NCBI GenBank assembly: GCA_024762335.1
Contig: JANTHO010000002.1
Coordinates: forward strand, 5,766-69,765
Direction: 5' to 3'
Length of the DNA: 64,000 nt
Source: Acidimicrobiia bacterium
Lineage (GTDB): Bacteria > Actinomycetota > Acidimicrobiia > Spongiisociales > UBA5794
In this document: positions 2,425 to 63,634 of the stretch, in pieces
Numbering within the stretch: the first letter of the stretch is position 1
Layout: each line of letters begins with the position of its first letter
Translations under genes and position numbers: made by a program
Notes under the pieces: model-generated
Told to the model about the DNA's origin: nothing
What the model saw: only the letters and a program-made list of their open reading frames with translations
Database searches by the model: none

Positions 2425-4372
<1,948 letters not shown>

Positions 4373-4623: not shown

Positions 4624-4628
4624 CGTTT

Positions 4629-4706: not shown

Positions 4707-4749
4707 AACACTTCCGCCCGGGTCACGACCCGGGCGTTGGTGTTGACCC

Positions 4750-4822: not shown

Positions 4823-4832
4823 CGATTGAGAA

Positions 4833-4857: not shown

Positions 4858-4927
4858 CGCGTCCACAACCCGGGTCTGCCGATCGTCTCCACCCGCGAAT
4901 GGAGCAAGGCGCCGAGCGCCGTGGTAT

Positions 4928-5956: not shown

Positions 5957-5960
5957 ACAC

Positions 5961-6085: not shown

Positions 6086-6102
6086 CATGGCAGAATGGGG
6101 TC

Positions 6103-7978: not shown

Positions 7979-9049
7979 TCACCAGCGGGCGTGGTGCTCC
8001 TCTGCCCACCCAACCAGGCCGTCGATCCGGACCGTAGACCCACCGTCGTCGACGACGGTGCCGGCGTAGTGCCCGAACATCTGGTGCACCTCGGACCGCA
8101 CGACGATGAGATTCGTGGCGGCCACGCGCTCGAGGAACGGGGTGAACTCGAGATCCACACGATCGGATCGCATCGTCCACGGCCGCATGAAGTCGGTGTC
8201 GGAGTAGTCGATGTCGATCGTCCCGAGTTGGTGGATCCGGCCGTCGACCAGCAACGTGTTCTCCATCACCGGTGACACATCTCCGATCGGCAGCCCCATG
8301 TTCAACCCGACCGTTCGGCCGTCATCGAGCAGCCCGGATGCACTCGCCCAGACCCAGAACGAGTTGTACTCCCACACGCCACGTCCCCAGTCGAGGTTGC
8401 CGAAGCTCGACGATGGATCCATACGCGTGACCGTGTCTCCGATGCGAAGCGTTCCCTCGACGGGCATGGCGTTGATCTTCCGGTTGTAGTAGAACCGCTT
8501 GCCACGTATCGGAATGACGGCCACCGTCGATTCGTGTCCCTCGGCGAAGTCGAATCGAAGGTCGGCATCGAGCGGCACCCCGCCGAAGTCGTCCCAATGC
8601 ATCTTGACGAACCGGGCGCCCTCATCGACCAAGAACTCGATCTGAACGTGCCGGTTCGAAAAGCGACTGTCCCCACTCTCGCTGTTCCTCGGGAGCACGA
8701 CGCTTCTTCCGAGGGGGACGGTCACGGTCTCTTCGTGATACGACCCGCAGGTGAAATCGATCACGTAGACGAACGCCATATCGGCATAGCCGAGATCGGC
8801 GAGCGTGACGGAGAAGAACCCACCGGGTGACGTGACGCCGTAGTAGTCCCACCGCTTCACCAACAGCCGTTGGATCGGTCTGATTCGCGTCGTGTACGCG
8901 TTCTCCAGATTGCAGTCGAGCAGCGGCTGTCGTGCCCACCCGGTCTGAAGCAGCGATCCCGTGCCATCGAGAAGCGGTGACGGCTCGGTGATCTCGTGGG
9001 GAATCGGTGACTGTCTCGCGTTCACCGCCGCGATCCAATCATCCGTCAC
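7979..9049 (-). CDS. conserved hypothetical protein, possibly DUF2804 family
   Basis: 356-aa ORF with a GTG start at 9049. Protein-like composition with motifs WDYYG and NLDWGRGVWEYNSFWVW. The family assignment is from memory and uncertain. Confidence 0.6.
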   Translation of the reverse strand: MTDDWIAAVNARQSPIPHEITEPSPLLDGTGSLLQTGWARQPLLDCNLENAYTTRIRPIQRLLVKRWDYYGVTSPGGFFSVTLADLGYADMAFVYVIDFTCGSYHEETVTVPLGRSVVLPRNSESGDSRFSNRHVQIEFLVDEGARFVKMHWDDFGGVPLDADLRFDFAEGHESTVAVIPIRGKRFYYNRKINAMPVEGTLRIGDTVTRMDPSSSFGNLDWGRGVWEYNSFWVWASASGLLDDGRTVGLNMGLPIGDVSPVMENTLLVDGRIHQLGTIDIDYSDTDFMRPWTMRSDRVDLEFTPFLERVAATNLIVVRSEVHQMFGHYAGTVVDDGGSTVRIDGLVGWAEEHHARW

Positions 9050-9281
9050 CGCCGCCCTTCGACAATCGAGGTACGACGAACGGGGTCACAGCGAACACGA
9101 TGAACATCACGACGGCAATGACCTCCGTTACCCGCCTGCGAAGGAGAGAACCGGGGTCGACTCCAAAGAACGTGATGATCTGGCCGACCAAGAGCGCAGC
9201 GACCAGAGCCATCGCGACCGACGCCAGCAGCCACAGGAGATAGATGAGGACGAACTTCCAGAGGGCGTCGTCCTCTCGCAT
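9039..9281 (-). CDS. small membrane protein (2 predicted TM helices)
   Basis: 80-aa ORF. Its ATG overlaps the stop of the upstream DUF4870 gene (ATGA at 9281). Hydrophobic stretches LIYLLWLLASVAMALVAALLV and VIAVVMFIVFAVTPFVV. Confidence 0.5.
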   Translation of the reverse strand: MREDDALWKFVLIYLLWLLASVAMALVAALLVGQIITFFGVDPGSLLRRRVTEVIAVVMFIVFAVTPFVVPRLSKGGGDG

Positions 9282-9640
9282 CAGCCGGTCACGAACCGGA
9301 ACGTCAGCGGATATCGGTAGAACTCGCCGTTGGCCGCTTTGATGCCGGCAATGATTTCGACGACGAGGGCGAAGATCATCACCACGAAGATCAGGACGAA
9401 ACCAATGATGACCAGCATCAGCAACACCGAGGCCAGGATGTAGATGATCAGCGTGATCTGGAAGTTCAACGACTCCCGAGCGTGATATTCGACGAACGGA
9501 TCATCGTCCTTCTTCATCAGCCAGATCACGAGGGGGGCGATGAAACCCAACCCGATCAGCGGAACGAGGTGGGCGGCGGTCGACCAGCCTCTGGAGTCGG
9601 AGGGGACGGGTTCGGGGACGGGAGGGAAGTCCTCGGTCAT
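9281..9640 (-). CDS. DUF4870-like small membrane protein
   Basis: Start at the internal ATG at 9640 (MTEDFPPVPEP…), which has an AAAGGA RBS. TM core LIGLGFIAPLVIWL…YHARESLNFQITLIIYILASVLLMLVIIGF. The 189-aa track ORF is an N-terminal over-extension. Confidence 0.6.
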   Translation of the reverse strand: MTEDFPPVPEPVPSDSRGWSTAAHLVPLIGLGFIAPLVIWLMKKDDDPFVEYHARESLNFQITLIIYILASVLLMLVIIGFVLIFVVMIFALVVEIIAGIKAANGEFYRYPLTFRFVTG

Positions 9641-9722
9641 TCTGATCCTTTCTCTGCTGCCGAAACGATACTCGTCTACGCCGAAGCTCCGGCCGTTCGC
9701 GTACCCTGTGCGGAGAGGAGGG

Positions 9723-10454
9723 ATGATGATCGAGACACCGCCACACCTTGATCCGGGATTGAGCGACGCTGCGAGGGCTGCGAAACGGGAGGCGCTTCGC
9801 CGACGATTCGCCGATCTTCCGTTCGAACTCCTCGACGTCCACCTCGACAACTACATCGACGCGGAGTTCCGGCTCAGCGCTGCGACCGAGCCCCTCGACT
9901 CGATCGGCCATGTCGAAGTCGGACCGGTCGGACCGGAGGATGTCGACGACGTGCTCGCCTTCTTCGACCACGACGCGTTCGCGGGTAAGCCCGAGTGGGC
10001 GATGTGCTACTGCCGGTCCCCGCACGTCGACCATGAGCGAGATTGGATCGAGCGCACCTGGCAACAGAATCGGTCGGAATTGGCGGACGCACTCCGGTCG
10101 GGCACGACTCGCGCCGTTGTCGCGAGAGTCGACGGACGGATCGTCGCGTGGCTCAATTGTTCGGATCGCACAACGTCGCCCAGGTACGCGACCGGTGATG
10201 ATGCGGGGGTCGCCCAGACGTTCTGCTGGATGGTTGCTCCCCCGTATCGTGGACACGGCCTCGCAGGATCGCTCCTCGAAACCGCGATCGAGATCCTCCC
10301 TGCCGAAGGGATCCATACGATTCAAGGCCATGCAATCGTCGAACCGGCCGACGAGAACGCCGCGTTCGTCGGTCCGCTCAGCCTCTACGAATCCCACGGC
10401 TTCACCGTGGGCGATGAATCCGACGGTCGAGCATTCGTGACCCGCGACCTCTGA
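9723..10454 (+). CDS. GNAT family N-acetyltransferase
   Basis: Start ATG at 9723, preceded by GGAGAGGAGGG. C-terminal GNAT motif (…WMVAPPYRGHGLAGSLLETAIE…YESHGF). Confidence 0.7.
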   Translation: MMIETPPHLDPGLSDAARAAKREALRRRFADLPFELLDVHLDNYIDAEFRLSAATEPLDSIGHVEVGPVGPEDVDDVLAFFDHDAFAGKPEWAMCYCRSPHVDHERDWIERTWQQNRSELADALRSGTTRAVVARVDGRIVAWLNCSDRTTSPRYATGDDAGVAQTFCWMVAPPYRGHGLAGSLLETAIEILPAEGIHTIQGHAIVEPADENAAFVGPLSLYESHGFTVGDESDGRAFVTRDL

Positions 10455-10485
10455 TTCCGCCATTCCGCGGGCCCGGGACGCCATA

Positions 10486-10510
10486 TAGGGCGCAGAGAAC
10501 CCTGGGTTCG
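10486..10510. repeat. REP-like palindrome copy (GAACCCTGGGTTCG, a 13-bp perfect palindrome core)
   Basis: atagggcgcagagaaccctgggttcgtg sits between convergent genes (GNAT stop 10454, minus-strand gene stop 10516). Related to the copies at 5961-6085 and 27247-27290. Confidence 0.5.
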
Positions 10511-10515
10511 TGTCG

Positions 10516-11265
10516 TTAGTTGGCGAAGGTGAGGGCTTGGCGGCCGGCCCACCGTCTCGCCACCCGGGTGTAGGCCGATCGCGACGCTGCTCCGTCGCCC
10601 CGTTCGAGCGCTTCGATGCTCTCCCGAACGTCGGCTGCCGACTCGTCGAACGTCAGGTCCCCATCCGTGATGTCGTCGGCGACCGTGCCGTAGTCGAGTT
10701 CGAGCATCGAACCGGCGGGGAACTCGGCGAGCCATCGTTCGAGATCGCGAACCTGCTCGATCACCGGCGCGGGGAATCCGGCGTCGTCGAGGACGCGCAC
10801 GGCCCAGCCAACCCGATCGACCGCTTCACCCATGCCGGTTCGGTATCGGATCCCGATCCCATCGGCCCGGTCGTAGATCTCCCGCTCCGACGCACTGAAC
10901 GCTCCGAACCATCGCAGCGGAACGTGCCAGGCCGATGCCAGGATATGGCTCCGTCGGTTCGCCGAACGGTGGGTGGCCAGTTCGTTCTTGAGTATCTCCC
11001 GCTCGTCTTCGGTGACGAGGGGGATCTTGGGAAACGATCCAGAAAACGCCAGAACGCCTTCCACCATGCGCAGCCTCGTATGGCGCGGACAGGCGTAGGT
11101 GACACCGTGCCACGTGGTGACGAACGCATCCTCGGTCATCGGTTCATCCCAAACGAAACGACCGTCGGAGCGCACGACGCGTTCGTCCGCTCCCGACTCG
11201 ACGTGCAACGCGAAGCCGGCGGGGTCGTCGGCGAGATAGACACGGAGATAGGCGGTGCTGATCAC
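10516..11265 (-). CDS. hypothetical protein
   Basis: Protein-like ORF. The 280-aa track ORF starts at 11358 and would overlap the divergent leucine dehydrogenase start. An in-frame GTG at 11265 (VISTAYLRVYLADD…) leaves a normal divergent intergenic region. No family recognised. Confidence 0.5.
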   Translation of the reverse strand: MISTAYLRVYLADDPAGFALHVESGADERVVRSDGRFVWDEPMTEDAFVTTWHGVTYACPRHTRLRMVEGVLAFSGSFPKIPLVTEDEREILKNELATHRSANRRSHILASAWHVPLRWFGAFSASEREIYDRADGIGIRYRTGMGEAVDRVGWAVRVLDDAGFPAPVIEQVRDLERWLAEFPAGSMLELDYGTVADDITDGDLTFDESAADVRESIEALERGDGAASRSAYTRVARRWAGRQALTFAN

Positions 11266-11351
11266 GCAGGGATGGTAACGGAGGGGGTCCCGATACGGAC
11301 CGGGTACCGCCCAACTAGAATCGGCTGCGCGGCGCAGAGCATGACCGCTGC

Positions 11352-12449
11352 GTGGCATCGAAAGGAGCCCCGTTGGGTGTATTCGAAGCGATCGGTACCG
11401 AGACCCATGAAGAGGTACTGTTCGGAGTAGACCACGAGAGTGGCCTCCGAACCATCATCGCCATCCACAGCACTGCCCTCGGTCCCGCTCTCGGCGGGAC
11501 CCGTTTCTTTCCGTACCCCGATGAGGACGCGGCGCTCCGGGACGTGCTCCGCCTCTCGAAAGGCATGACCCTCAAGTCGGCTGCGGCGGGTCTCGACCTC
11601 GGCGGCGGCAAGGCCGTGATCATCGGCGATCCCGCCACGCTGCGATCGGAGCGCCTCATTCGCGCATACGGCCGGGTGATCGACTCGCTCGGCGGGCGCT
11701 ACATCACCGCCGAAGACGTCGGCACGACGGTCGACGACATGGTCCTCATCGCCAGGGAGACGCCGTGGGTATCCGGCCTTCCGTATGCACAGGGAGGTTC
11801 GGGTGACCCATCGCCAGAGACCGCCCGCGGTGTGATGGCGGCATTGCGGGCCGTCGGCGACCGGGTCTGGGGATCGACCGATCTCGCGGGTCGGCGGGTC
11901 GCCGTCCAGGGCGTCGGCAAAGTCGGCATGGATCTCGTTCGACGGCTCACGGAGGCCGGGGCCGAAACGATCATCACGGACGCCAATCCGGATGCAATGG
12001 CGTTCGCCGCGGAGACGTACGGATCTGAGCCGGTTGGTCTCGACGAAATCTACGACGTCGAGTGTGACGTCTTCTCACCCTGCGCCCTCGGCGCCACGCT
12101 GAACGCCGACACCATCCCCCGGTTGCGCTGTTCAGCGATCGCCGGATCGGCGAACAACCAGCTCGCGACCGATACCGACATCGAGCGAATCGTGGCTCGC
12201 GGAATCCTCTACGCACCCGACTTCGTCGTCAACGCCGGTGGGGTGATCAACATCGCGGTCGAAACGGACGGCTACTCCATCGAGCGGGCCGAAGCGATGG
12301 TCGACCGCATCTACGACAATCTCTCCGAAGTCTTCGACACCGCCGAGCGGGATGGCGTCAATCCCGACGTCGCCGCAACACGTTTCGCACTACGAAGGAT
12401 CGATCAGATCGGACGTCTCCGCGTCAAACGCCGGCCCGGAGAGCAGTGA
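11352..12449 (+). CDS. Leu/Val/Phe (branched-chain) amino-acid dehydrogenase (Glu/Leu/Phe/Val DH family)
   Basis: Motifs GLRTIIAIHSTALGPALGGTRF and the Rossmann fold GVGKVGMDLVRRL. The track start is a GTG at 11352. A TTG at 11376, preceded by AAAGGAG with a 5-nt spacer, gives an N-terminus that fits LeuDH/ValDH homologues better. Confidence 0.85.
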   Translation: MASKGAPLGVFEAIGTETHEEVLFGVDHESGLRTIIAIHSTALGPALGGTRFFPYPDEDAALRDVLRLSKGMTLKSAAAGLDLGGGKAVIIGDPATLRSERLIRAYGRVIDSLGGRYITAEDVGTTVDDMVLIARETPWVSGLPYAQGGSGDPSPETARGVMAALRAVGDRVWGSTDLAGRRVAVQGVGKVGMDLVRRLTEAGAETIITDANPDAMAFAAETYGSEPVGLDEIYDVECDVFSPCALGATLNADTIPRLRCSAIAGSANNQLATDTDIERIVARGILYAPDFVVNAGGVINIAVETDGYSIERAEAMVDRIYDNLSEVFDTAERDGVNPDVAATRFALRRIDQIGRLRVKRRPGEQ

Positions 12450-12459
12450 GAGGAGCACC

Positions 12460-14490
<2,031 letters not shown>

Positions 14491-14521
14491 CCGTGGCCAC
14501 CGAAGGTCGTAGCATGGCGCC

Positions 14522-15397
14522 ATGTCCGACGGTGTGATCGTTCGACCAGCGCTGCCATCCGATCGTGAGGCGATCGTGGCATTCACCCACGACACGTTCG
14601 AGTGGGGCGACTACATCGCCGACGTGTTCGACGAGTGGCTCGCCCGCGACGACACGCAGGTCATGGTCGCCGTCGTGGACGACGTGCCGATCGCAACCGG
14701 CAGCGCACGGATGCTGTCTCCGACCGAAGCGTGGTTCCACGGCGCCAGGGTGCATCCGGACTACCGCGGCCGGGGAATCGCCGCCGACGTGTCGAAGGAT
14801 CTGCGGGCATGGGCCCGCGATCAGGGAGCCGTGGTCGGACGCCTCCTCATCGAGGAGGGCAACACGCCGTCGATCCGTCACGTCGAGAAGACCGGCCGGC
14901 GACGCGTTGCGACGATGGTCCGATGTTCGAAGCCGGTCGGTGACGCATCGCCCTCCCCGAGCGGCAACGGCGGACGGCGAGTGCCGTCGAAACTGCGGGC
15001 CCGACCGGCGAGTTCGACCGAGGCTCAGGCAGCGTTCGCCTCGTGGTCCGTCGGGGAGTTGGGCCGAGCGTCGCGCGGCCTCTTCGGGATCGGCTGGGCA
15101 TTCCGGCGCCTCACGATCGGGGACCTGGCGGCGGCCGCACGCGGCAGCGCGTTCTGGGAGATTGGAGCCGGCTGGGCCCTGGCTTCGCCGACGCAGGAGG
15201 CCCGTCTCGAGGTCGGATGGATCGAGACCCGGTCGGAAGACGCCGACGATCTTCTCCGCTCCCTGATCGACCTGGCGATCGGATCGGGCTCCGAGTCGAT
15301 CATCCTGTGGGTTCCGGAAATCGAATGGACGGTCCGCGCCGCCAGGCGACTCGGTTTCGAGACCGCGAAGATGCATGTCTACGCGTCGGCGCTGTGA
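14522..15397 (+). CDS. GNAT family N-acetyltransferase
   Basis: 291-aa ORF with an N-terminal GNAT motif (…ARVHPDYRGRGIAADVSKDLRAWA…) and a second GNAT-like half. Confidence 0.65.
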   Translation: MSDGVIVRPALPSDREAIVAFTHDTFEWGDYIADVFDEWLARDDTQVMVAVVDDVPIATGSARMLSPTEAWFHGARVHPDYRGRGIAADVSKDLRAWARDQGAVVGRLLIEEGNTPSIRHVEKTGRRRVATMVRCSKPVGDASPSPSGNGGRRVPSKLRARPASSTEAQAAFASWSVGELGRASRGLFGIGWAFRRLTIGDLAAAARGSAFWEIGAGWALASPTQEARLEVGWIETRSEDADDLLRSLIDLAIGSGSESIILWVPEIEWTVRAARRLGFETAKMHVYASAL

Positions 15398-15659
15398 CGA
15401 CGAGGCGGGATCGAACGGCCGGTTGCTCATGGATCCTTTCGCCTCCCGACACCAACACAGGGTGAGGCCGGTCCGTCCGGGTTGGGATCGGCGGCGCAGC
15501 CGTTCGCACGATCGATCCCGACCATCTGTCTCAATCACGAACAGACTGAGCAATGACACGGCGTTGCCGCCGATGCCGATAGCCCCGGATTCCGGTGTAG
15601 GGGAAACACTCGGGACATCCCTGATATCGCACGACGCCGTGAAGTCCGATACTCGATGC

Positions 15660-16685
15660 ATGTCCACAGAAAGAGGGTCGGGTTTCTCAGGCATCGCGAC
15701 CAGCCTCGCATTCGTCTTCTTGTCGGCTCTCATCGTTGTGACGGCTTCGGAGCGGGTCTACTGGTATTGGGGATTCGCCGGCGCCGACCCTGCCGATGTT
15801 GCTCTCGGTACCATCGAGGCAGCACTGTTCTACTCGGTGCCGATGGCCGCCGCGCTCTGGGTGATGGCGAAAACCCCCGTGCGCCGCCTGCACCAACTGG
15901 TGCTCGCCTCGGCGGTGTTCGCCTTCGTGGTCGAAGGTGTGCTCACGGCGGTCATCTTCGAAGCCGGCCCGATCGATCCGATCTTCCCGGCCATGTTCGT
16001 CGGCTGGCATGGATTGCTCGCGATGGTCGGCTTCTGGTATCTCACCCGGAAGTGGCTGATCGAGCGTCGTCGTCGCCTCTTGGGGATCGGTGCGATCGCG
16101 ATGGGCATGCTCTGGGGTCTGTGGGCGACGACGTCGTGGCTGCCCGGGAACCTGGCCGACGCCGCCCCCGACGAAATCAGGACTGTGGCTGATCCCGCGG
16201 TGTTCGCTCTCTATGCCGCGTGGGTCGGTGCAGTCTTCATCGCAGGCCACTGGCTCCTCGGACGTGTTTGGCGACCGCAGTTCAGCCCCGGTCGCGTAGG
16301 TACGGTCGTTCTCGCCGCCGTGATGATCGGTCTGCACGCCTTGGTTGTCATCGCCGTTCCCTGGGCACCGTTCAAGCTGGCGGCGCTGCTCGGCGTCGTC
16401 GCCTGGGCTCTCGTTCGCAGCCGCAGGGGCAGTGAGGGTCCGACGATTCTCGAGCAACTCGACGGCCACGTGCGATGGCGCGACGCCGCGCTCCTCTCAC
16501 TCATGCCGATCACGGCGGCCGGGACATACGCCGCCGCATGGGGCGCCGCCGTGCCGGATGGAGTCATCGAGGTCGTCTTCCTAGCGCTTGTCGCCGTCCA
16601 GGTTCTCGCAGGTGCGGTCGCGTTCGTCTGGGCATCGATCGAAGCCTTTCGAGCGAAGGAGCCCGATCGCCGCGTGTCATCGTGA
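15660..16685 (+). CDS. polytopic integral membrane protein (about 8 TM), function unknown
   Basis: Start at the ATG at 15660 (MSTERGSGFSGIATSLAFVFLSALIVV…), followed by a continuous hydrophobic helix pattern. The 436-aa track ORF has an Arg-rich, non-protein-like N-terminal extension. Confidence 0.6.
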   Translation: MSTERGSGFSGIATSLAFVFLSALIVVTASERVYWYWGFAGADPADVALGTIEAALFYSVPMAAALWVMAKTPVRRLHQLVLASAVFAFVVEGVLTAVIFEAGPIDPIFPAMFVGWHGLLAMVGFWYLTRKWLIERRRRLLGIGAIAMGMLWGLWATTSWLPGNLADAAPDEIRTVADPAVFALYAAWVGAVFIAGHWLLGRVWRPQFSPGRVGTVVLAAVMIGLHALVVIAVPWAPFKLAALLGVVAWALVRSRRGSEGPTILEQLDGHVRWRDAALLSLMPITAAGTYAAAWGAAVPDGVIEVVFLALVAVQVLAGAVAFVWASIEAFRAKEPDRRVSS

Positions 16686-17891
16686 GCGAAGAGCGTCCCA
16701 GTACAACTCGATCGGGTGGGCGACGACGGTGCCGCTGTCGAGGTGTGCCTTCAGTTGCATCTCGCATCCGGGGTTCGCAGAAGCAACCAGGTTGAGGCCG
16801 GTCGCCCGGACCTGAGTCGACTTCGCCATGCCGAGAATCGCAGACATCTCCGGGTGGTCGAGTTGGTAGGCGCCCGCCGCCCCGCAGCACGTTCCCGCGG
16901 GGTCGGTCTCGACCGGTGAGTACCCGGCTGCTCGCAGAATCTCTCGCGGTTCTTCAGCGATGCCCTGAGCATGTCGGAGATGACACGGATCCTGGACGGC
17001 GATCGGCGTGTCGCCCTCGATGTGCGGCAGTAGGTCGGCATCGAGGAGCGTTGCGATGAGTTCGTTCGCGTCGATGATCCGGGATGCCAGATCATCGCCA
17101 CCGTCCGCCCAGTGCCCGTACCCCTTCATGTGGGCGCTGCACCCCGCCGAGTCGACGACGACGAGGTCGAACCCGTCGAACGCTTCGACGTTCTGAGCAG
17201 CCATCTTCGCCGCGTCGTACGCCGCCCCTTCGTGAGCGGCCAGGGCGCCACAACACGTCTGGTTCTTCGGGGCAACGACCCGATAGCCGGCAGTGCGGAG
17301 CACCTGGATGACGGCCGTATGCACATCTGAGTACCACTGGTCCATCACGCACCCGGCGAGGAAGCCGACGGTGCCGATCGGTTCACCTTCGGGCAGCCAC
17401 TCGTGACCGGCCGTCGTTGGAACGGGGAGCGGAATGGTGCGGAGCGCCGTGGCCTTCGCCGCCGAACCCGGAAGCACGGAGGCAAGGTGCATCCGCTGGA
17501 CGGCTCCCACGACCCATGACAACAGCACGACCGCCGACCGCGAGGCGATCGCCCGGCCGAACACGGTGCGTGTCGCGACGGTCCGCCAATCGGGAAGTTG
17601 CGCCGCAACCTCGGCCCGGGCCCCTTCCATGAGGCGACCGAACTGGACGAGGGAGGGACAGGCGACTTCGCAGGCCCGACACTGGAGGCAGAGTCCCATC
17701 ACTTCGGCGAAGCGTTCGTCTACCTCGACGAGTCGGCGATCGACGGCACGCATCGCTGCGATGCGTCCGCGGGGGGACGCCGATTCGTCCCCGGTGACGC
17801 CGAACGTGGGGCAGACGGGGAGGCAGAGACCGCAGTCGATGCATGCGTTCAGTTCCACGGTCGTCGGCGCGAAGTCGGTCACCCACGCCAT
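16677..17891 (-). CDS. glcF: glycolate oxidase iron-sulfur subunit
   Basis: Two 4Fe-4S motifs (CIDCGLCLPVCP, CLQCRACEVACP) and two CCG domains (…GCVMDQ…QTCCG…, …QDPCHL…GTCCGAAG). Start ATG at 17891 overlaps the glcE stop (ATGA). Confidence 0.85.
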   Translation of the reverse strand: MAWVTDFAPTTVELNACIDCGLCLPVCPTFGVTGDESASPRGRIAAMRAVDRRLVEVDERFAEVMGLCLQCRACEVACPSLVQFGRLMEGARAEVAAQLPDWRTVATRTVFGRAIASRSAVVLLSWVVGAVQRMHLASVLPGSAAKATALRTIPLPVPTTAGHEWLPEGEPIGTVGFLAGCVMDQWYSDVHTAVIQVLRTAGYRVVAPKNQTCCGALAAHEGAAYDAAKMAAQNVEAFDGFDLVVVDSAGCSAHMKGYGHWADGGDDLASRIIDANELIATLLDADLLPHIEGDTPIAVQDPCHLRHAQGIAEEPREILRAAGYSPVETDPAGTCCGAAGAYQLDHPEMSAILGMAKSTQVRATGLNLVASANPGCEMQLKAHLDSGTVVAHPIELYWDALRSR

Positions 17892-56676: not shown

Positions 56677-57366
56677 TCACCGGCAACTCTCCTCAACGCC
56701 CGTCGCCGGCATCATTCCGGTGAGGAGTCGGTAGCCCGCGGTCATTGCCGGACACGTCGCGTTCGGGAGCTTCCACAGGTGGATCTGCTGGTCGATGATG
56801 CCCCAGGAGATGATCTCTGCGGCATGCTCGGTTCCCCTGCGACCCCACTCAACCGACGGATCGTTCCATGCGGCGAGGCCGCGCAGCGCCAGGAAGTGCT
56901 GTCGGTCGGTCTCGTCGAGCGTGGATCCGGCCCATGCGTGGGCGAGTTCGTGAACGAGGGTGCGGCGCTGCCACTCGTCCTCCACCGCTGGTTTGTCGTG
57001 GGTGATGCAGACCATGATTCGATCAGCCTCGGCATCGCGGTGTTCCCAACGGCCGTCCGTGCCGTGACATCCCGCCCCGTCGGCAGGGAACGTTACGTCC
57101 ACCGGCGGCAGGTCGAGTCCCGCTGCTTCGAAGCGCCCACGGGCCCACGCCACCATCGACCGTTGCCGGTCGGTGAGTGAGGTTCCCGGGACACGGTGGC
57201 GCCGCGCGGTTGGTGCTGCGGCCCGATGGACCCTGCGGACCACCGTGGCGGTGTTCTCGGAAACCGTCGCGTCGGCCGCCTCGACGGACGAACCGGTTGC
57301 CAGACAGAGGGCCGCGGCCAGTGCAGCGGCGACGATGCGGCTGAGGGGGATCTTGTTGGTTGCCAT
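56677..57366 (-). CDS. secreted protein with HEXXH motif (putative zinc metallopeptidase)
   Basis: Signal peptide MATNKIPLSRIVAAALAAALCLATGSSVEA. LVHELAHAW zinc-binding-like motif. Confidence 0.55.
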   Translation of the reverse strand: MATNKIPLSRIVAAALAAALCLATGSSVEAADATVSENTATVVRRVHRAAAPTARRHRVPGTSLTDRQRSMVAWARGRFEAAGLDLPPVDVTFPADGAGCHGTDGRWEHRDAEADRIMVCITHDKPAVEDEWQRRTLVHELAHAWAGSTLDETDRQHFLALRGLAAWNDPSVEWGRRGTEHAAEIISWGIIDQQIHLWKLPNATCPAMTAGYRLLTGMMPATGVEESCR

Positions 57367-57409
57367 GCCACCAACCTCTGCGCGCGGCCTTCCCGGCGCG
57401 TAGGCTTGG

Positions 57410-57453
57410 CTTCAGATCGCCTTCGCCGGGGCTTAAGCCGCCCTTAAGCCGGA
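57410..57453 (+). promoter_or_regulatory. four tandem 11-bp-periodic direct repeats (CTTcagatcgc / CTTcgccgggg / CTTAAGCCgcc / CTTAAGCCgga), SARP/OmpR-box-like
   Basis: Read directly. The two distal units share the 8-mer CTTAAGCC exactly, at 57432 and 57443. The last unit ends about 60 bp upstream of the GTG start of the downstream SARP-domain gene. Confidence 0.4.
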
Positions 57454-57512
57454 CGGCGTCCCATGTCGGGGTGAACAGAAAGGGAGCGACCAGAACCGAG
57501 GGAGCACGGATC

Positions 57513-60500
57513 GTGCGATTCGGGATCCTCGGCCGACTCGAGGCCGAACGCGACGGGACAGCAATTTCGCTCGGCTCGTTCAAGGAACGGTCGCTGCTCA
57601 CATTGCTCCTCATCCACCGTGACGAGGTCGTCTCCACCGACCGCATCATCGACGAACTCTGGGGTGAAGACGCCGTCGGTCGCCAGAATGCCCTCTGGGT
57701 GCACATCTCCAACCTCCGAAGCGCCCTCGAACCCGATCGAGAGAAAGGGTCGGAGGGGACCGTGATCCTCACCCGCTCCCCCGGTTACCTCATCCCTGCA
57801 GTTACATGCGATCTCGACGCTCCGCGATTCGAGCACCTCGCAGCAGAGGGCCGTGCGTTGATCCCCACCGATCCGGCTGCGGCGGCACTCGTCCTCGGCG
57901 AGGCGCTCGCCCTTTGGAGGGGGCACGCTCTCGAGGACTTCACCTACGAGAACTTCGCACAAGCAGAGATCGCGCGACTCGAGGAGGCCAGGCTCGGCAC
58001 GGTCGAAGCGAAGATCGACGCCGAACTCGCGGCCGGACGTTCCCGTGAACTCGTCGGCGAACTCGAAGGCCTCGTCCGCCAGCATCCGACTCGCGAGCGC
58101 TTCACAGCCCAACTGATGCTCGCGCTCTACCGCTCCGGGCGCCAGACCGAAGCGCTTCGTGCCTACCACCTCGTGGCCTCGCGGCTGGGACAAGAACTCG
58201 GGCTCGAGCCGTCGGCCGATCTCCGGCATCTCGAAGGGCAGATCGTCTCAGGCGATCCGGCCCTCGACGCGACTGCAACGACCCGGCTCCCTGGCGATGC
58301 CGGCCCGTCGGGGCTGTCGATCCGCGGCTATGAAATGCGGGAGCGCCTCCGCGAAGACCCGCTCGGCATCACCTACCGTGCGTTCCAGCCTTCGGTCGGC
58401 CGCGAGGTCGCCGTCAAGGTGATCCGACCCGGAGTTGCCGACCGTCCGGAGTTCATTCGCTCGTTCGAGGATTCCGCCCGGCTCGCCGCCCGCCTCGAAC
58501 AGCCGCACATCGTGCCGATCTACGACTACTGGCGCGAGCCGGGCAACGCGTTCCTTGTGATGCGGCTGATGATGGAACGGAGCCTCGCCGATCGTCTCGC
58601 CGGCGGGCCGCTCGACCACACCGCCACCGCAACCATGGTGGACCATATCGGCTCGGCGCTCGATCACGCACACCGCAACGGCATCGTGCACGGCGACGTC
58701 AACGCCGGCAACGTTCTCATCGACGACGCGGGCAACGCCACACTCGCCGACTTCGGCATCGCAGCCGCAGCCGAAGTCGTCGCCGCCGGATCAGCGAGAA
58801 CGCTGTTGACGCCTGAGACCGCGCCCACGGTCGCGACCGACATCGCCGGTCTGGCTTGCGTGACAGCAAGTGCATTGACGGGACGAACGGGAACCATCGA
58901 CGAACTCCGCGTTGGCCTCGATCCGGACCTGGCACAGATCCTCGGCGATGCAGCTGATCCGAACGGGCCCTTTGCCGACATCACATCGTTCACAACAGCG
59001 CTTATCTCGTCTCTCACTGCTGCACCGGCGCCACGTGCGGCCGGTATGATCGCCAACCCATACAAGGGGCTTCGCCCGTTCGAACAGCCCGACGTTGCAG
59101 ACTTCTTCGGACGGACGCGGCTCGTCGATCGCCTCGTTGCCCGCCTCGGCCGCCCCGGACGAACGGGGCGGTTCGTCGCCGTCGTCGGACCGAGTGGATG
59201 CGGCAAATCGAGCCTGGTGAAGGCCGGTGTGCTCCCGGCCCTGAAAGGAAATGCTGCGCCGTCATCCGGCGGATGGTTCCAGGTGGAGGTCGTGCCCGGT
59301 AGGCACCCCTTCGAAGAGCTCGAAACGGCGCTGCTAAGGGTCACCGTCGATCCCCCCGGCTCCCTCCTGCGCGACCTCACCGCCGAAGGGGGGCTGCGCC
59401 GTGTCGTGGAGCGGGTCCTTCCCGACGACCACGGGCAGCTACTGATCGTCGTCGACCAACTCGAAGAGCTGTTCACGATGACGGCTCCCGACACGGCCAA
59501 CCGGTTCCTCGACGCTCTCGCCGATGCGGCGACGACCGAGCCCAGCCGGGTTCGGATCGTCGCCACACTCCGAGCCGACTTCTACGACCGTCCGTTGAGC
59601 CACCGAGCCTTCGGCGAATTGCTGCGCGAAGGAACGGAGGTCGTCACGCCCATGTCGCCCGCCGAACTGGAGCAGGCAATCACCCGACCGGCCGGTCGCC
59701 TGGGAATCGAGTTCGAGCCCGCCCTCGTCGCCGAAATGGTGGCCGAAGCGGCCGAACATCCTGCGGCGCTGCCGCTGTTGCAGTATGCGTTGACGGAAGT
59801 GTTCGAGCGGCGCAGAGGAAGGATCATCGGCCTCGACGCCTATCACGAGATCGGTGGCGTCTCCGGAGCGCTCGCCGATCGGGCCGAGGGTCTGTACCAC
59901 GCACTCGACGAGCAGGGCCGTCGGGCGGTACGCCAGGTCTTCCTGCGGCTCGTCACGATCGGCGAATCCACAGATGACACCCGACGCCGGGTCCTATTGA
60001 GCGAATTGCGGGGACTCACCGACTGCGGCGAAGCCGTACCGACCGTCGTCGAGAGCTACGGACGGCACCGGCTCCTCAGCTTCGATCGGGATCCGATCAC
60101 TCGCACGCCAACCGTCGAGATCTCCCATGAAGCAATCATCCACGGGTGGGAACGCCTCGATGGCTGGATCGAAGACGCCCGATCGGAGTTGCGCGATCAG
60201 CGGAAGATCTCCGAAGCCGCGGCCGAATGGGTTCGAGCCTCGTGTGCCAACGACTACTTGTTGCGGGGGCCCCAACTCGACCGCCTCGCCGCTTCGGTAG
60301 CCGCAGCATCACTGTCGCTCAGCCCCGACGAACGGGAGTTCATGTCGGCATCGCTCGCCGAGCGGGATCGGTCGCGTCGCGAGGACGACGAACGAGAGCG
60401 CCGCCGGGAGGAGGCCGAGCAGCGATCGCGCCGGAGAACGAGATTGCTCGGTGCGGCCGTCGTCGTCGCCGTGCTGATCGCGTTCCTCGGCGTCTTCGCT

Positions 60501-62258
60501 CTCTACCAGCGTCAACAGGCGAAAGCGGCGGAGCAGCGGGCCGCCGACATCGCGGAGGGGAACCGCATCGCCGACCTGGCGAACCGCGCCTCGGACTCGC
60601 ACCTGGCGATGCTGTTCTCCCTCGCCGCCGCCGACCTGCTGACCGAACCGAACGAACCGATCCCGATCAACGCGGAGGAGGCGATGCACCTCGCCGCGCA
60701 GAAGGCGCGCCTCGCCTACCCACCGGGTGACTGGCCGACCGGCAGCATCGCCCAGCGCGCCGGATCGGTCGGAGTCTTCATCCTGCCGCCCGACGACCTC
60801 GTCGCCCATCTCCGCGCCCACCTCGACCGGACGTTTACGGTCGACGAGTGCGCGGAGTACGGGCTCCCGAAGCCGTGCCCTCCGCCGCCGGGATCTTTGG
60901 CGACACCGGCGGAATCCGGCCCGCTCGACCTCGACCTCGCCGGGGTCACCTCGGCGATCGGCGCTTCCCCCGCCTTCGCTGCGTCGGCCCCGCCGCGCGT
61001 CGTCATCCTCGGACCGATGAACCCGGATGGAGGTCTCGGTGACGAGTTCGAGGCACTCGGCGAAGCGTCCGGGATGACCGTCACCTACGCCTGGGAAGAC
61101 AACCCGCCGGCAACCGCAATGGGGTGGACCGAGACGGGTCACCCGCCGGATATCGTCTGGATCGCGCAGCCGGCGATTATCCCCGCCGGCGACGCGGCGC
61201 TCGGTCACATCGACCTCAGCGCGTATCTGGATCGCGACACGCTCATCACCGACTACGGTCGCTATTCCATTCAGGCCGCGACGGTCGCCGACGACGGAGT
61301 CTGGCCGTCGAACGACGGGCGGATCCTCGGCGTCCCCGTCAAGGCGGATGTCAAGGCCCTCGTCTGGTATCCCCGGGAGGCGTTCACCGAAGCGGGCTAC
61401 ACCGTGCCGGAGTCGTGGGACGATCTCATCGCTCTCTCCGACCGCATCGTCGCCGACGGCCGCACCCCCTGGTGCGTCGGCTGGAGCGACGGGGGCTTCG
61501 CCGACGGATGGCCGGCGACGGACCTGCTCGAAGGCCTGGTGTTACGCACCGCCGGTCTCGACGGGTACGACCGATGGGTGCGGCATGAGATCCCGTTCGA
61601 CGACCCGGACGTCATGGCAGCGGCCGAGGCGCTCGATCAGATCGTCATGACCCCCGGCTACGTCCACGGCGGACCGCAGGTGATCAGCCGCACCCCGTGG
61701 TTCGTCGCATCGGAGCCGATGTACCGTCCCGGCGAGCCGGACTGCTGGCTCACCTACCAGGCGAGTTTCATGACTCAGTACATGCCACCGAACGTCGATC
61801 CCGATGCGGCAGCAGGGGTCTTCTCACTCCCACCGATAGAGACCGGCGGCGACGCCCCGGTGCTGGGCGGTGCCGTCTACGCCGTCGTCCTCACCGACCG
61901 GCCCGAAGTGCGCGACGTCGTCCGCTGGCTCGCAAGTCCCGAGTTCGGAGCCAACTGGGCCTCGGTTCCCGGAAGCGAGTTCCTGCCGGCGAACAACCGA
62001 TTCGATCTCGACAAATTCGGGTCGGTTGGATCGATCCGCCGGGACATGGCCGCGATCGTTACCGACGCCTGGCGACACGACGCCTGGCGTTTCGACGGCT
62101 CGGATATGATGCCCGGGCCGATCGGGTCGTGGGGAGACGACGGAATCGGTTCGTTCTGGCAGGGCATGCTCGACTACGCCGATGGGAAGCGCACGATCGA
62201 ACAGGTCATGCACGAGATCGAAGCGGACTGGGTAACACTGGAATCGAACGGGTCCTAG
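57513..62258 (+). CDS. giant multidomain signalling protein: SARP-type wHTH + BTAD / degenerate Ser-Thr kinase / STAND P-loop NTPase / TM helix / extracytoplasmic solute-binding-like domain
   Basis: Start at the GTG at 57513 (after GAGGGAG). Residues about 1-250: OmpR-type wHTH (LLTLLLIHRDEVVSTDRIIDELWG) plus BTAD. About 270-480: Hanks kinase fold with VAVK and DFG, but a non-canonical catalytic loop HGDVNAGN and a degenerate Gly-loop. About 515-880: NPYKGLRPFEQPDVADFFGR…VVGPSGCGKSSLVKAGVLPAL Walker A, LLIVVDQLEEL Walker B. About 950-980: charged coiled-coil. A TM helix LLGAAVVVAVLIAFLGVFALY. About 570 aa C-terminal extracytoplasmic domain. Confidence 0.8.
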   Translation: MRFGILGRLEAERDGTAISLGSFKERSLLTLLLIHRDEVVSTDRIIDELWGEDAVGRQNALWVHISNLRSALEPDREKGSEGTVILTRSPGYLIPAVTCDLDAPRFEHLAAEGRALIPTDPAAAALVLGEALALWRGHALEDFTYENFAQAEIARLEEARLGTVEAKIDAELAAGRSRELVGELEGLVRQHPTRERFTAQLMLALYRSGRQTEALRAYHLVASRLGQELGLEPSADLRHLEGQIVSGDPALDATATTRLPGDAGPSGLSIRGYEMRERLREDPLGITYRAFQPSVGREVAVKVIRPGVADRPEFIRSFEDSARLAARLEQPHIVPIYDYWREPGNAFLVMRLMMERSLADRLAGGPLDHTATATMVDHIGSALDHAHRNGIVHGDVNAGNVLIDDAGNATLADFGIAAAAEVVAAGSARTLLTPETAPTVATDIAGLACVTASALTGRTGTIDELRVGLDPDLAQILGDAADPNGPFADITSFTTALISSLTAAPAPRAAGMIANPYKGLRPFEQPDVADFFGRTRLVDRLVARLGRPGRTGRFVAVVGPSGCGKSSLVKAGVLPALKGNAAPSSGGWFQVEVVPGRHPFEELETALLRVTVDPPGSLLRDLTAEGGLRRVVERVLPDDHGQLLIVVDQLEELFTMTAPDTANRFLDALADAATTEPSRVRIVATLRADFYDRPLSHRAFGELLREGTEVVTPMSPAELEQAITRPAGRLGIEFEPALVAEMVAEAAEHPAALPLLQYALTEVFERRRGRIIGLDAYHEIGGVSGALADRAEGLYHALDEQGRRAVRQVFLRLVTIGESTDDTRRRVLLSELRGLTDCGEAVPTVVESYGRHRLLSFDRDPITRTPTVEISHEAIIHGWERLDGWIEDARSELRDQRKISEAAAEWVRASCANDYLLRGPQLDRLAASVAAASLSLSPDEREFMSASLAERDRSRREDDERERRREEAEQRSRRRTRLLGAAVVVAVLIAFLGVFALYQRQQAKAAEQRAADIAEGNRIADLANRASDSHLAMLFSLAAADLLTEPNEPIPINAEEAMHLAAQKARLAYPPGDWPTGSIAQRAGSVGVFILPPDDLVAHLRAHLDRTFTVDECAEYGLPKPCPPPPGSLATPAESGPLDLDLAGVTSAIGASPAFAASAPPRVVILGPMNPDGGLGDEFEALGEASGMTVTYAWEDNPPATAMGWTETGHPPDIVWIAQPAIIPAGDAALGHIDLSAYLDRDTLITDYGRYSIQAATVADDGVWPSNDGRILGVPVKADVKALVWYPREAFTEAGYTVPESWDDLIALSDRIVADGRTPWCVGWSDGGFADGWPATDLLEGLVLRTAGLDGYDRWVRHEIPFDDPDVMAAAEALDQIVMTPGYVHGGPQVISRTPWFVASEPMYRPGEPDCWLTYQASFMTQYMPPNVDPDAAAGVFSLPPIETGGDAPVLGGAVYAVVLTDRPEVRDVVRWLASPEFGANWASVPGSEFLPANNRFDLDKFGSVGSIRRDMAAIVTDAWRHDAWRFDGSDMMPGPIGSWGDDGIGSFWQGMLDYADGKRTIEQVMHEIEADWVTLESNGS

Positions 62259-62297: not shown

Positions 62298-63389
62298 TCA
62301 CCTCAACCTTTCGAGCGCCTCGTCACACACCGGAGCGACTGCCGACCAGTCGAAGGGAGCGACCGCTGCAGCCAGGTCGGCCACGATGCGGGCGGCCTCG
62401 ACCGCATGCTCGATCGCCCATGCGACCCGGTCGGCGGGTCCGGACTGCTCGTCGTACAGACAGCGGCCATGATGTTGCTCCGGGATCCGCTCCGGGTAGA
62501 CGAGGCGATTCGGAAGAACGGGGAACGCGCCGGCGGCGATCGCTTCGACGATGGCGATCCCGAAGAACTCATGGTGCGCGGTGGACACGACGATATCGGC
62601 CCGGCGAAGCAGTTCCACGTACTCGTCGTCCGGGAGGAACCCGAACGCCACGAGCCGGTCGCCCAGCAGATCGGGGAGGCGATCGAATGAGTCGGGGGCC
62701 GACACGAACCGTTCGCCGACGACGGCGACCCGGAAGTCGAGGTTCCGAGCGATGAGCGCTTCGATCAGGTCGACGAACTCGTCGGGTCCTTTGTCGTGCT
62801 CCCACCGTTGATTCCAGAGGATGAGCGGCTGATCCTGACCCGTGCGGTCGGCCGGTGGTCCGATCCGTTGGAGATCAACGCCGACCGGCAGGACGATCGA
62901 GCGGGCCTCGACTTCGGGGATCAGCGAAGCGTGGCGGTGGTCGGGGAATTGTCGGAGAAACCGTTCCGCTTGCTCGAAGAACAGCGAGCGATGGAACTCG
63001 GAGTTGAAGATCGGCAGGTCGGCGACGGCGGCACTCGCCCAGTTGATCATCGGGTACGTCTGGTCGACGCGGTCCAGGGGCGATAGTGGGTACGAGAACT
63101 GGCTCTCATGGAAGTACACGGCAACGGGGGCATCGCCGATCGTGTTCCGGGCGGCACCGATGAACGCCGGGACGTTCATCATCGACGACGCGAGTACGAC
63201 ATCCGGCGGCGAGTCGAAGGTTTGCGCCAGTGCGTTCGCAAGGGTCAGGTGCGCGCCGTGCATCCGCCACTTCCAGAATCGTGCCTCGTGGGTGACGAGC
63301 GTCACATCGTGAGCGCTGTTCGCGACATAGCCGTCTGCCCAGGCCCGGTGGGATCCGCCGTAGTAGGACTCGACGAGCAGAATCTTCAC
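62298..63389 (-). CDS. glycosyltransferase (GT1/GT4-type with DUF3524/GTDC1-like N-terminal domain)
   Basis: The GTG at 63389 overlaps the stop of the upstream small ORF (GTGA). N-terminus KILLVESYYGGSHRAW resembles GTDC1/DUF3524. C-terminal GT-B motif EFFGIAIVEAIAAGAFPV. Confidence 0.65.
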   Translation of the reverse strand: MKILLVESYYGGSHRAWADGYVANSAHDVTLVTHEARFWKWRMHGAHLTLANALAQTFDSPPDVVLASSMMNVPAFIGAARNTIGDAPVAVYFHESQFSYPLSPLDRVDQTYPMINWASAAVADLPIFNSEFHRSLFFEQAERFLRQFPDHRHASLIPEVEARSIVLPVGVDLQRIGPPADRTGQDQPLILWNQRWEHDKGPDEFVDLIEALIARNLDFRVAVVGERFVSAPDSFDRLPDLLGDRLVAFGFLPDDEYVELLRRADIVVSTAHHEFFGIAIVEAIAAGAFPVLPNRLVYPERIPEQHHGRCLYDEQSGPADRVAWAIEHAVEAARIVADLAAAVAPFDWSAVAPVCDEALERLR

Positions 63390-63634
63390 GGGTGCGACAT
63401 CCCACGGGCGATGTTCCAACCGGTGGCGACCGGCACGTACTCGATCACGACTTCGTCCCCTCGGGCGAGCCGGCTTGCCCGGGCAGCGAGGGCGGCGTCG
63501 GCATCCTCCCCCTTCGCATGGAACGCGAAACCGACCGGCTCCACTTCGTCGAAGGCATCCACCGGCCTGCCCCACACGATGACGGTGTCTCCTTCGTCCG
63601 AGACGGCGGTGACGGCGATGTGTGTGTCCGGCAT
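63386..63634 (-). CDS. small hypothetical protein (82 aa), translationally coupled to the glycosyltransferase
   Basis: Start at the ATG at 63634 (MPDTHIAVTAVSDEGDTVIVWGRPVDAFDEV…). Protein-like, acidic. No family recognised. Confidence 0.45.
   Translation of the reverse strand: MPDTHIAVTAVSDEGDTVIVWGRPVDAFDEVEPVGFAFHAKGEDADAALAARASRLARGDEVVIEYVPVATGWNIARGMSHP

Follow-up and report, generated by a model that had tools for sequence, protein, structure and literature searches.

A SARP–nSTAND1 protein with a predicted membrane helix and extracytoplasmic solute-binding sensor in an Acidimicrobiia bacterium

A 64,000-nucleotide stretch of an Acidimicrobiia bacterium genome (assembly GCA_024762335.1, contig JANTHO010000002.1, positions 5,766 to 69,765 of the forward strand) is referred to here as the window. 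The gene of interest is located at 57513..62258 on the + strand and encodes a protein of 1581 amino acids (aa) that is 100% identical to database protein P0001. From the N-terminus, the domain order is an OmpR-type winged helix-turn-helix (wHTH), a bacterial transcriptional activation domain (BTAD), a kinase fold, an nSTAND1 NTPase, one transmembrane (TM) helix, a juxtamembrane module and a CUT1-type solute-binding protein (SBP) fold. An earlier description made from the letters alone, called here the sequence-only reading, had proposed that a Streptomyces antibiotic regulatory protein (SARP) module, a kinase, a STAND NTPase and an extracytoplasmic sensor are joined in this single polypeptide. 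Throughout this study, the evidence on the protein comes from sequence comparison and structure prediction.

The gene and the modules of its product

The open reading frame (ORF) runs without interruption over 57360-62258 (+), and its stop codon is at 62256-62258. GTG 57513 is the likely start codon, because a Shine-Dalgarno-like GAGGGAG (57498..57504, +) lies 8 nt 5' of it and because the N-terminus that it gives (MRFGILGRLEA…) agrees with the N-termini of homologues. The alternative TTG start at 57360 would overlap the divergent neighbour gene and the promoter region.

A search of 5.8 billion proteins returned the identical entry and 119 further homologues with 44-75% identity. The homologues are about 1500-1650 aa long; nearly all are full length, and nearly all have the same Pfam set. 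They are located on independent contigs of up to 938 kb. Those with taxon names belong to Acidimicrobiia, Acidimicrobiales or Ilumatobacter, and they are annotated only as 'extracellular solute-binding protein'. The count is a lower bound, at least 120 full-length homologues, mostly from Acidimicrobiia. The intact ORF and the full-length homologues on independent contigs therefore indicate a real single gene and no assembly chimera, and a frameshift or gene-fusion artefact was ruled out. The claim that this is one polypeptide is upheld. The sequence-only reading had itself named a missing TM helix, a missing SARP wHTH and a frameshift as grounds for doubt. What was found is a predicted TM helix, a SARP wHTH and one conserved frame.

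Pairwise identity was compared by part in the 120-sequence alignment. It was 0.61 for the wHTH, 0.66 for the BTAD, 0.63 for nSTAND1 and 0.55 for the kinase, and was lowest in the outside parts, with 0.41 for the juxtamembrane module and 0.39 for the SBP. This gradient is as expected if a fixed output is joined to a diversifying sensor.

The N-terminal SARP module proposed by the sequence-only reading was verified by Pfam, by sequence matches and by structure superposition. The wHTH covers aa 1-95 (57513..57797, +) with the recognition helix ...RQNALWVHISNLR..., and it is matched by Pfam Trans_reg_C at aa 24-93 (2.2e-14) and by AfsR 8k60 in Foldseek. The BTAD covers aa 101-244 (57813..58244, +) and matches the full profile of PF03704 (5.5e-42). 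By sequence, aa 1-257 match EmbR best (1.8e-33), together with AfsR (7e-33). The AlphaFold model of the SARP part was superposed by Foldseek on DNA- and RNA polymerase-bound AfsR with a template modelling score (TM-score) of 0.89, a root-mean-square deviation of 2.3 Å and 37% identity.

An atypical kinase-fold domain follows at aa ~268-500 (58314..59012, +). Pfam Pkinase matches aa 285-421 (5e-20, 72 bits against a cut-off of 31.7), which corresponds to profile positions 13-149 only, the N-terminal half. Despite this half-profile match the fold is taken as complete, because the model aligns with PknA, PknI and PknB over about 250-280 columns at TM-scores of 0.70-0.78 (Foldseek). In the family alignment, the protein retains the kinase residues K302, E319, D395, N400 and D413-F-G. 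The Gly-rich loop is lost, with REDPLG in place of GxGxxG, and the catalytic loop reads HGDVNAGN in place of HRDxKxxN, so that the catalytic-loop Lys is Asn. All seven catalytic residues are kept in 26 of 120 close homologues and the K-D-N-D core in 59 of 120. The distant relatives carry canonical GxGxxG, VA[IV]K, HRDVKPxN and DFG motifs; therefore the erosion is specific to the subgroup of the 1581-aa gene. Judged from these motifs, the kinase looks catalytically competent in the distant relatives. With the kinase decaying in this subgroup, the domain here may be a scaffold or pseudokinase, and the description 'AfsK fused in cis' may not hold for the 1581-aa protein, although it would hold for the distant relatives. 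The kinase that had been placed between the SARP module and the NTPase is thus confirmed in fold and position, with part of its catalytic motif set kept and part lost.

The NTPase occupies aa 516-909 (59058..60239, +) and matches nSTAND1 (PF20703) over profile positions 1-374 of 379 with 2.6e-113 and 379.9 bits, against a cut-off of 27.1. Walker A is GPSGCGKSS and Walker B is VVDQLEE. The patterns GPSGxGKSS and DQ[FL]EE are invariant in 120 of 120 sequences, and the P-loop string quoted in the sequence-only reading is present in the protein. A STAND NTPase after the kinase was correctly predicted, but its clade is nSTAND1 and not NB-ARC or AAA_16. An NB-ARC nucleotide-binding oligomerization domain (NOD) of AfsR type was ruled out, since Pfam gives nSTAND1, with AAA_16 and NACHT as only weak secondary matches. 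In the search for solved structures related to the NTPase by sequence, none was found beyond P-loop-level matches to ABC ATPases. The structure models were built from 47-row alignments. At aa 548-562 (~59154-59198, PGRTGRFVAVVGPSG), the strand and P-loop entry, the AlphaFold predicted local distance difference test score (pLDDT) is below 50, although this is the most conserved stretch in the family. The nucleotide-free state or an effect of the alignment may account for this low score.

A highly charged helical stalk, aa 910-977 (60240..60443, +), leads into the membrane, with AF2 helices at 920-931 and 938-976. The predicted single TM helix is at aa 978-998 (60444..60506, +), with an N-in/C-out orientation. 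Its Kyte-Doolittle value over 19 residues is 2.87, and the next best segment reaches 1.43. Within the flanking 15 residues, eight Lys or Arg precede the helix and three follow it. The strongest hydrophobic window aligns with aa 978-998 in all 120 homologues, where the family mean of Lys and Arg is 5.8 on the N-side and 2.2 on the C-side. The TM helix claimed earlier is thereby supported.

The C-terminal region of about 570 aa, for which a sensor role had been proposed, resolves in the models into two parts and agrees with that proposal. The juxtamembrane module, aa 999-1135 (60507..60917, +), is predicted at pLDDT >90 with three helices and a beta-hairpin; a long helix runs on from the membrane and is followed by two helices and the hairpin. 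It contains an invariant Cys pair, C1113/C1122, in an ECx7CP motif, and its helical part is common to SBP-type and WD40-type relatives. The CUT1-type (carbohydrate-class) SBP fold covers aa ~1161-1581 (60993..62255, +) and contains the Cys pair C1321/C1411. Pfam SBP_bac_1 matches aa 1208-1477 (6e-11). Sequence matches in the PDB are AcbH, NagB1/2, XOS-BP and UgpB. Foldseek gave E 3e-15 and TM-scores of up to 0.80 over about 430 aligned columns, and its partners were the AcbH galactose/acarbose receptor, the Thermus Glc/Gal-BP, a chitin-oligosaccharide BP, NagB2, RafE and a xylo-oligosaccharide BP. The model of aa 999-1581 is a complete two-lobed SBP with a pLDDT of 94.9 and a predicted TM-score (pTM) of 0.93.

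SBP_bac_1 proteins are normally extracytoplasmic. All four Cys (C1113, C1122, C1321 and C1411) are invariant in 120 of 120 sequences and lie C-terminal to the TM helix, and the same alignment has no invariant Cys within the 977 cytoplasmic residues. This pattern fits an oxidising extracytoplasmic site. A cognate sugar-ABC permease adjoining the gene was not found in the window or at six other loci. An SBP fused to a regulator with no ABC permease nearby implies sensing rather than transport. The proposed ToxR/CadC-like topology is thus supported at the level of prediction by the positive-inside bias, the outside Cys, the SBP fold and the minimal relative P0133 described below.

Promoter repeats and the recognition helix

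In the 146-bp region that separates the 1581-aa gene from its divergent neighbour, CTTAAGCCG is present in two copies with an 11-bp offset (57432 and 57443). A candidate SARP box of two 11-bp direct repeats, CTTAAGCCGCC and CTTAAGCCGGA, is located at 57432..57453 (+). The only two CTTAAG hexamers of the 64-kb window are both in this box. It is kept in the 75% orthologue, whose intergenic region has otherwise diverged. A -10-like hexamer, TCCCAT (family pattern CAnnnT), follows at 57459..57464 (+). In the aligned promoters, the CAnnnT hexamer ends in a T that is conserved in 89% and is located 16 nt past the second TAAG. If this T is -7, the box is predicted at about -39 to -18 and the transcription start site near 57471. 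For comparison, the afs box recognised by AfsR spans -40 to -19 and is built from two 11-bp repeats. Each of these is bound by its own SARP protomer, which touches the first 8 bp, and the promoter has a weak -10 element, CACTGT (PMC10936776). The hallmark of SARP-family promoters, 11-bp tandem repeats overlapping -35, is present here at the sequence level.

The box was further compared over the family with 77 non-identical upstream regions from the window, L002-L008 and 80 metagenome loci, the latter obtained by scanning metagenome contigs with the N-terminal alignment. Exact TAAG-N7-TAAG is found in 31 of the 77 promoters, against a shuffled expectation of 0.055, and in 39 when one mismatch is allowed (shuffled, 1.4). 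On the gene strand the TAAG pair occurs essentially only at 11-bp spacing, with one exact match at spacing 17, and it always lies between 70 and 111 nt 5' of the start codon. Alignment of the boxes gives the consensus CTTAAGtC-N3-CtTAAGtC, in which each repeat has 8 conserved and 3 variable bp. More distant subgroups account for the 38 promoters that lack TAAG repeats; there, other direct repeats are found at 11-bp spacing, namely CTGGAAG, CTTGCAAG, TGAAA, TTCAAGCG and TCAACCG. Self-repeats of 5-mers number 124 at spacing 11 and 5-22 at the other spacings from 8 to 14.

The repeats vary together with the recognition helix. A helix of the type …NALWV[HY]… goes with a TAAG box in 38 of 40 cases, against 1 of 37 for other helices (Fisher 2e-18, with kinship ignored). 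In the other subgroups, helix TLQTY is paired with CTGGAA, TLQAY with CTTGCAAG, TLQVY with TGAAA and TLHSY with T[TA]CAAG. The distance from the box to the start codon of the regulator is constant while the intergenic length varies from ~100 to 280 bp, and the box therefore belongs to the regulator's own promoter. The co-variation of helix and box implies autoregulation through private boxes, which is read as positive autoregulation from these sequence patterns. The non-palindromic boxes of the other subgroups argue for head-to-tail binding of the OmpR/SARP type.

A separate element was observed in a distant subgroup. At 10-60 nt before the start codon in L087, L094, L098, L103, L105, L106, L109 and others, a conserved leader reads …CTTCC… and then GCGTACGGTC[CG]. 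The leader is directly 5' of ATG/GTG, at the expected Shine-Dalgarno place. It could be an element of the 5' untranslated region, or the true start could be further upstream.

Related architectures, neighbouring genes and known systems

An exhaustive HMMER search, run with the ectodomain as query, gave 2356 cluster representatives at E<=1e-3, of which 445 reached E<=1e-30. Architecture variants were identified by Pfam scans of selected ectodomain matches and of the metagenome loci. The smallest is SARP-TM-SBP, without kinase and STAND, in P0133, which has 894 aa, the same length on nine contigs and the same TM helix. SARP-nSTAND1-TM-SBP, without the kinase, is found in P0124 and P0135. The full SARP-kinase-nSTAND1-TM-SBP order of the 1581-aa gene is also found in L087. 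In L095, L075, L088 and L083 the order is SARP-kinase-nSTAND1-TM-WD40. The NTPase with a single hydrophobic helix is further found in three other architectures without SARP, which are Pkinase-nSTAND1-WD40 in Chloroflexi, Pkinase-GerE-nSTAND1-WD40 in Aggregatilineales and Trypsin-nSTAND1 in Streptomyces. The helix after nSTAND1 thus appears in unrelated architectures and is a clade-wide feature. From these domain orders, the SBP or WD40 part is read as an interchangeable sensor and the N-terminal head as an interchangeable output. A scan of genome contigs found at least one full-architecture locus (L008) and nSTAND1 relatives; the P-loop pattern used there is generic.

Several loci stand out individually. 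L010 4013-9292 (Aggregatilineales, Chloroflexota) encodes a Pkinase-GerE(LuxR HTH)-nSTAND1-TM-WD40 protein of 1760 aa, in which, judged by domain order, the kinase-nSTAND1-TM cassette has been joined independently to another kind of DNA-binding domain. L004, on a 938-kb contig, has two full-length paralogues in tandem, at 8001-12728 and 12860-17677, each with its own TAAG-type box, and a further 769-aa BTAD-only protein nearby at 3960-6269. By its gene content, this arrangement is a local paralogue expansion. Paralogues in tandem or on one contig were also found in other genomes, and no paralogue of the 1581-aa gene was found elsewhere in the 64-kb window. Two candidate new architectures, L084 (6001-8658, 886 aa) and L092 (6001-9357, 1119 aa), were rejected, as their tails beyond the break are unlike the family. 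The L084 tail is Arg/Gly/Pro-rich, as in an out-of-frame translation of GC-rich DNA, and both are probably assembly frameshifts.

The surroundings of the gene in the window are housekeeping genes: aspartokinase, thiolase, glpX, recR, ybaB and dnaX. The neighbourhood survey called for by the sequence-only reading found no conserved operon around family genes in the window or at six other loci, but a divergent gene recurs. In the window this gene lies at 56677..57366 (-) and encodes a predicted secreted, gluzincin-like protein of 229 aa with a signal-peptide-like N-terminus and an HExxH motif. At 26 of 67 testable loci a homologue lies upstream, divergently and no more than 900 nt away, with identities down to ~34% and across box subgroups. 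The 229-aa protein matches no Pfam or NCBIfam family, and its 49 relatives are nearly all unnamed or 'hypothetical'. The residues H139, E140, H143, E180, C100 and C120 are invariant in this family. HExxH with a downstream Glu and a Cys pair is, at the sequence level, the signature of a secreted gluzincin-like peptidase. The gene may be under the control of the regulator, or its product may take part in the signalling.

The small HExxH gene has a second copy just past the regulator end in L087 (7027-7452), L109 (6851-7270) and L112 (6661-7098), all on the - strand, which suggests tandem arrays of HExxH gene and regulator pairs. In the window, a convergent gene at 62298-63392 (-), 40 nt downstream, encodes a glycosyltransferase with QTMAN_N (tRNA-queuosine mannosyltransferase N-terminal) and GT1 matches and a weak 'GT4-conflict' match. 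It was ruled out as a conserved partner; beyond the window it is kept in the 75% orthologue (L002) alone, which probably reflects plain synteny.

By sequence, and for the SBP part by fold, the 1581-aa protein is a bona fide member of the SARP (wHTH+BTAD), nSTAND1 and SBP_bac_1 families. The closest known comparison is AfsR, the 'large SARP' of Streptomyces coelicolor, which consists of SARP, NB-ARC NOD and TPR and is phosphorylated by AfsK. The two proteins share a SARP module followed by a STAND NTPase, a link to a Hanks-type kinase and, by sequence, a predicted target of two 11-bp repeats with 8 conserved and 3 variable bp in place of -35. Unlike AfsR, the protein has nSTAND1 and not NB-ARC, has no TPR match in the Pfam scan, carries a partly degenerate kinase fold in cis, and is predicted to be membrane-anchored with an extracytoplasmic SBP sensor. 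Lacking NB-ARC and TPR, it falls outside the 'large SARP' class of AfsR. The match to the NCBIfam AfsR equivalog is confined to the SARP part and reaches 139.9 bits (cut-off, 1430). Reviews and a 2026 preprint describe SARPs only as small, medium, large (NB-ARC+TPR) or SARP-LAL, and the 1581-aa protein is outside all of these. EmbR of Mycobacterium tuberculosis (SARP+FHA) is the best sequence match to the SARP part. EmbR/PknH and PknK (kinase, STAND-like ATPase and TPR) are comparable pathways, in which a SARP is under the control of a Hanks kinase or such a kinase is joined to a STAND-type ATPase. Unlike these, the present protein has no FHA, holds kinase, SARP and STAND in one chain, and has its sensor covalently attached through the TM helix.

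Like ToxR, CadC and TcpP, the protein is predicted to have a cytoplasmic N-terminal OmpR-type wHTH, one TM helix and an extracytoplasmic sensor. P0133 (SARP-TM-SBP) shows the ToxR-like layout with a BTAD added. The Cys on the outside domain recall CadC, which is reported to have a periplasmic disulfide (PMC3096576). Unlike in ToxR and CadC, a BTAD, a kinase fold and a STAND NTPase, ~880 extra residues, lie between the wHTH and the membrane, the SBP-fold sensor is unrelated to their periplasmic domains, and the host is actinobacterial. The 19 Pfam families matched, and the best 25 of the 59 matched in NCBIfam, include no ToxR or CadC family. The resemblance beyond the wHTH is thus an analogy rather than demonstrated homology. 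An extracytoplasmic SBP/Venus-flytrap input module is also present in the BvgS/EvgS histidine kinases and in GlnH-GlnX-PknG (PMC4810494; PMC6069109); in contrast to those systems, the output here would be direct transcription through the fused SARP, with no phosphorelay or separate kinase, and the SBP is of the CUT1 sugar class.

The literature on nSTAND1 treats the clade as conflict-system NTPases (PMC8195603; PMC10907252). With those proteins (Kaur, Burroughs, Iyer & Aravind 2021, PMC8195603), the present protein shares the effector-NTPase-sensor layout and the full PF20703, and the helix after the NTPase is common to the kinase-nSTAND1-WD40 and trypsin-nSTAND1 proteins. It differs in its DNA-binding activator effector, in an SBP in place of repeats or a C-type-lectin sensor, and in having no defence-island context. 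In the literature searched, including BTAD+Pkinase fusions, no membrane-anchored, kinase-fused or nSTAND1-type SARP is described. The sequence-only reading had found the domain order unfamiliar. It is right in that no paper in the literature searched describes the order, but the protein is not a one-off, as it belongs to a large family of at least 120 homologues. The modules are all known; their arrangement, the trans-membrane STAND logic and the co-diversified helix/box pairs are undescribed.

Proposed signalling mechanism and alternatives

Taken together, the 1581-aa protein is probably a membrane-integrated one-component transcription activator with ToxR/CadC-like topology and AfsR-like logic. 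An extracytoplasmic, probably sugar-like ligand would close the SBP lobes, and closure would alter the packing or oligomeric state of the juxtamembrane, TM and stalk helices. This change would release the nSTAND1 switch, allowing exchange of nucleoside diphosphate for triphosphate and oligomerisation at the membrane. In AfsR, autoinhibition by the NOD is relieved by ATP (PMC10936776). Oligomerisation of nSTAND1 would place SARP modules side by side, so that each of the two repeats could be filled by one protomer and RNA polymerase be recruited in the manner of AfsR. The outcome would be positive autoregulation amplifying the regulator; the divergent secreted HExxH-peptidase gene might be controlled as well. 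The kinase-fold domain would be an optional modulator; in distant relatives it would act like AfsK on AfsR, but in cis. A bolder version sees in the protein a transmembrane receptor resembling NOD-like receptors (NLRs), in which the extracytoplasmic domain drives STAND through one helix and oligomerisation assembles an activator on a private DNA box. This version is offered tentatively, and we lean slightly against it.

Several points weigh against the proposed mechanism. Canonical STAND sensors contact the NTPase directly, whereas here the membrane lies between the SBP sensor and the NTPase, and no precedent for STAND transmission through a single TM helix was found. In the model of the cytoplasmic part, the placement of the domains relative to one another is unreliable (pTM 0.44), and confidence is low for the P-loop strand. 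On the DNA side, no further box was found elsewhere in the 64-kb window, and the helix-box statistics ignore phylogeny. The core CTTAAG is palindromic, and the orientation of the box rests on its flanks and on the non-palindromic boxes of other subgroups.

The same parts could also serve a different purpose. In an NLR-like conflict or immunity sensor, the ectodomain would detect a phage-, competitor- or kin-derived molecule and trigger a transcriptional response. The description of the clade in conflict systems (PMC8195603; PMC10907252), the trypsin or kinase heads and WD40 sensors on relatives with the same NTPase-TM core, the paralogue expansion with tandem copies, and the sensor as the fastest-evolving part all agree with such a role. 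Some family loci also adjoin a phage-type integrase or a phage capsid gene (L006 3633-4898; L007 12144-13598), which hints that certain family copies, unlike the window copy, sit on or beside mobile elements. However, the output module is a transcription activator paired with a private autoregulatory box and not a death effector, the window neighbourhood is housekeeping, and a sugar-class SBP fold is typical of nutrient sensing. Among the 25 of 29 PADLOC matches listed there were only generic kinase matches (PD-T4-6, mad6, MkoA) and a 24-residue P-loop match, with no defence STAND model. Membership in the known defence-STAND groups (Avs, bNACHT and others) was rejected on this lack of a specific match and on the transcription-factor effector. 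A conflict role is therefore judged unlikely. The HExxH neighbour raises another possibility, namely regulated proteolysis. The tethered form would be inactive, cleavage would free a soluble SARP-kinase-STAND part, and the HExxH protein might be the site-1 protease. Regulated intramembrane proteolysis of membrane-tethered regulators is well established, and release would spare the 977-residue tethered cytoplasmic part from having to capture chromosomal DNA. A secreted gluzincin-like gene is divergently paired in 26 of 67 loci, across subgroups; yet the pairing is absent in ~60% of testable loci, the partner is equally possible as a regulated target, and none of the loci inspected showed a site-2 protease gene. 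ToxR and CadC indicate that membrane-bound wHTH activators can function without release (PMC10629549; PMC6320335). We give this explanation little weight.

Two further explanations change the role of a single module. The protein could be a receptor Ser/Thr kinase of the PknB/PknD type, with phosphorylation as the main output and SARP and STAND as regulatory appendages or substrates. Kinase-TM-sensor layouts are common in Actinobacteria (PknB, PknD, PknH), the modelled kinase fold is complete, distant relatives have canonical motifs, and K302, E319, D395, N400 and D413 are kept here. The lost Gly-rich loop, the Asn in place of the catalytic-loop Lys and the mere 26 fully canonical members among 120 homologues speak against it, and the SARP and nSTAND1 parts are better conserved than the kinase. 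In addition, P0124, P0135 and P0133 lack the kinase yet keep SARP, TM and SBP, and a kinase receptor is thus very unlikely. Finally, the protein could be wholly cytoplasmic if the hydrophobic segment were no membrane helix, and the SBP-like domain would then sense an intracellular metabolite like the sensor arms of MalT and AfsR. Classical STAND sensors are indeed cytoplasmic and in direct contact with the NTPase. But the segment is hydrophobic in 120 of 120 sequences despite 41% identity, with the Kyte-Doolittle value of 2.87 and the positive-inside bias, the four invariant Cys occur only beyond the helix, and the SARP-TM-SBP variant has the same helix. A cytoplasmic location is highly improbable.

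The family of the proposed membrane-integrated activator appears, from sequence, to be a large and undescribed set of signalling pathways in Actinobacteria of soil and water, each self-contained in one protein. The accepted picture places STAND/NLR switches inside the cell and treats SARPs as soluble regulators of antibiotic clusters; a STAND-SARP that spans the membrane and has its sensor outside would extend both, and it would raise the mechanistic question of how one TM helix gates a STAND NTPase. If the transmembrane NLR-like version is true, the family would be a natural toolkit of orthogonal single-polypeptide pathways from outside ligand to promoter, with swappable sensors (SBP/WD40), optional kinase and STAND layers and co-diversified helix/box pairs. 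The series SARP-TM-SBP, with nSTAND1 added and then the kinase, would offer built-in controls for what each layer contributes, such as thresholding, cooperativity and memory through autoregulation. The predicted helix/box pairs could be used in Actinobacteria as orthogonal promoters that respond to ligands. Poorly studied Acidimicrobiia of soil and water carry many members of the family, and the identity of the ligands would show what such organisms monitor.

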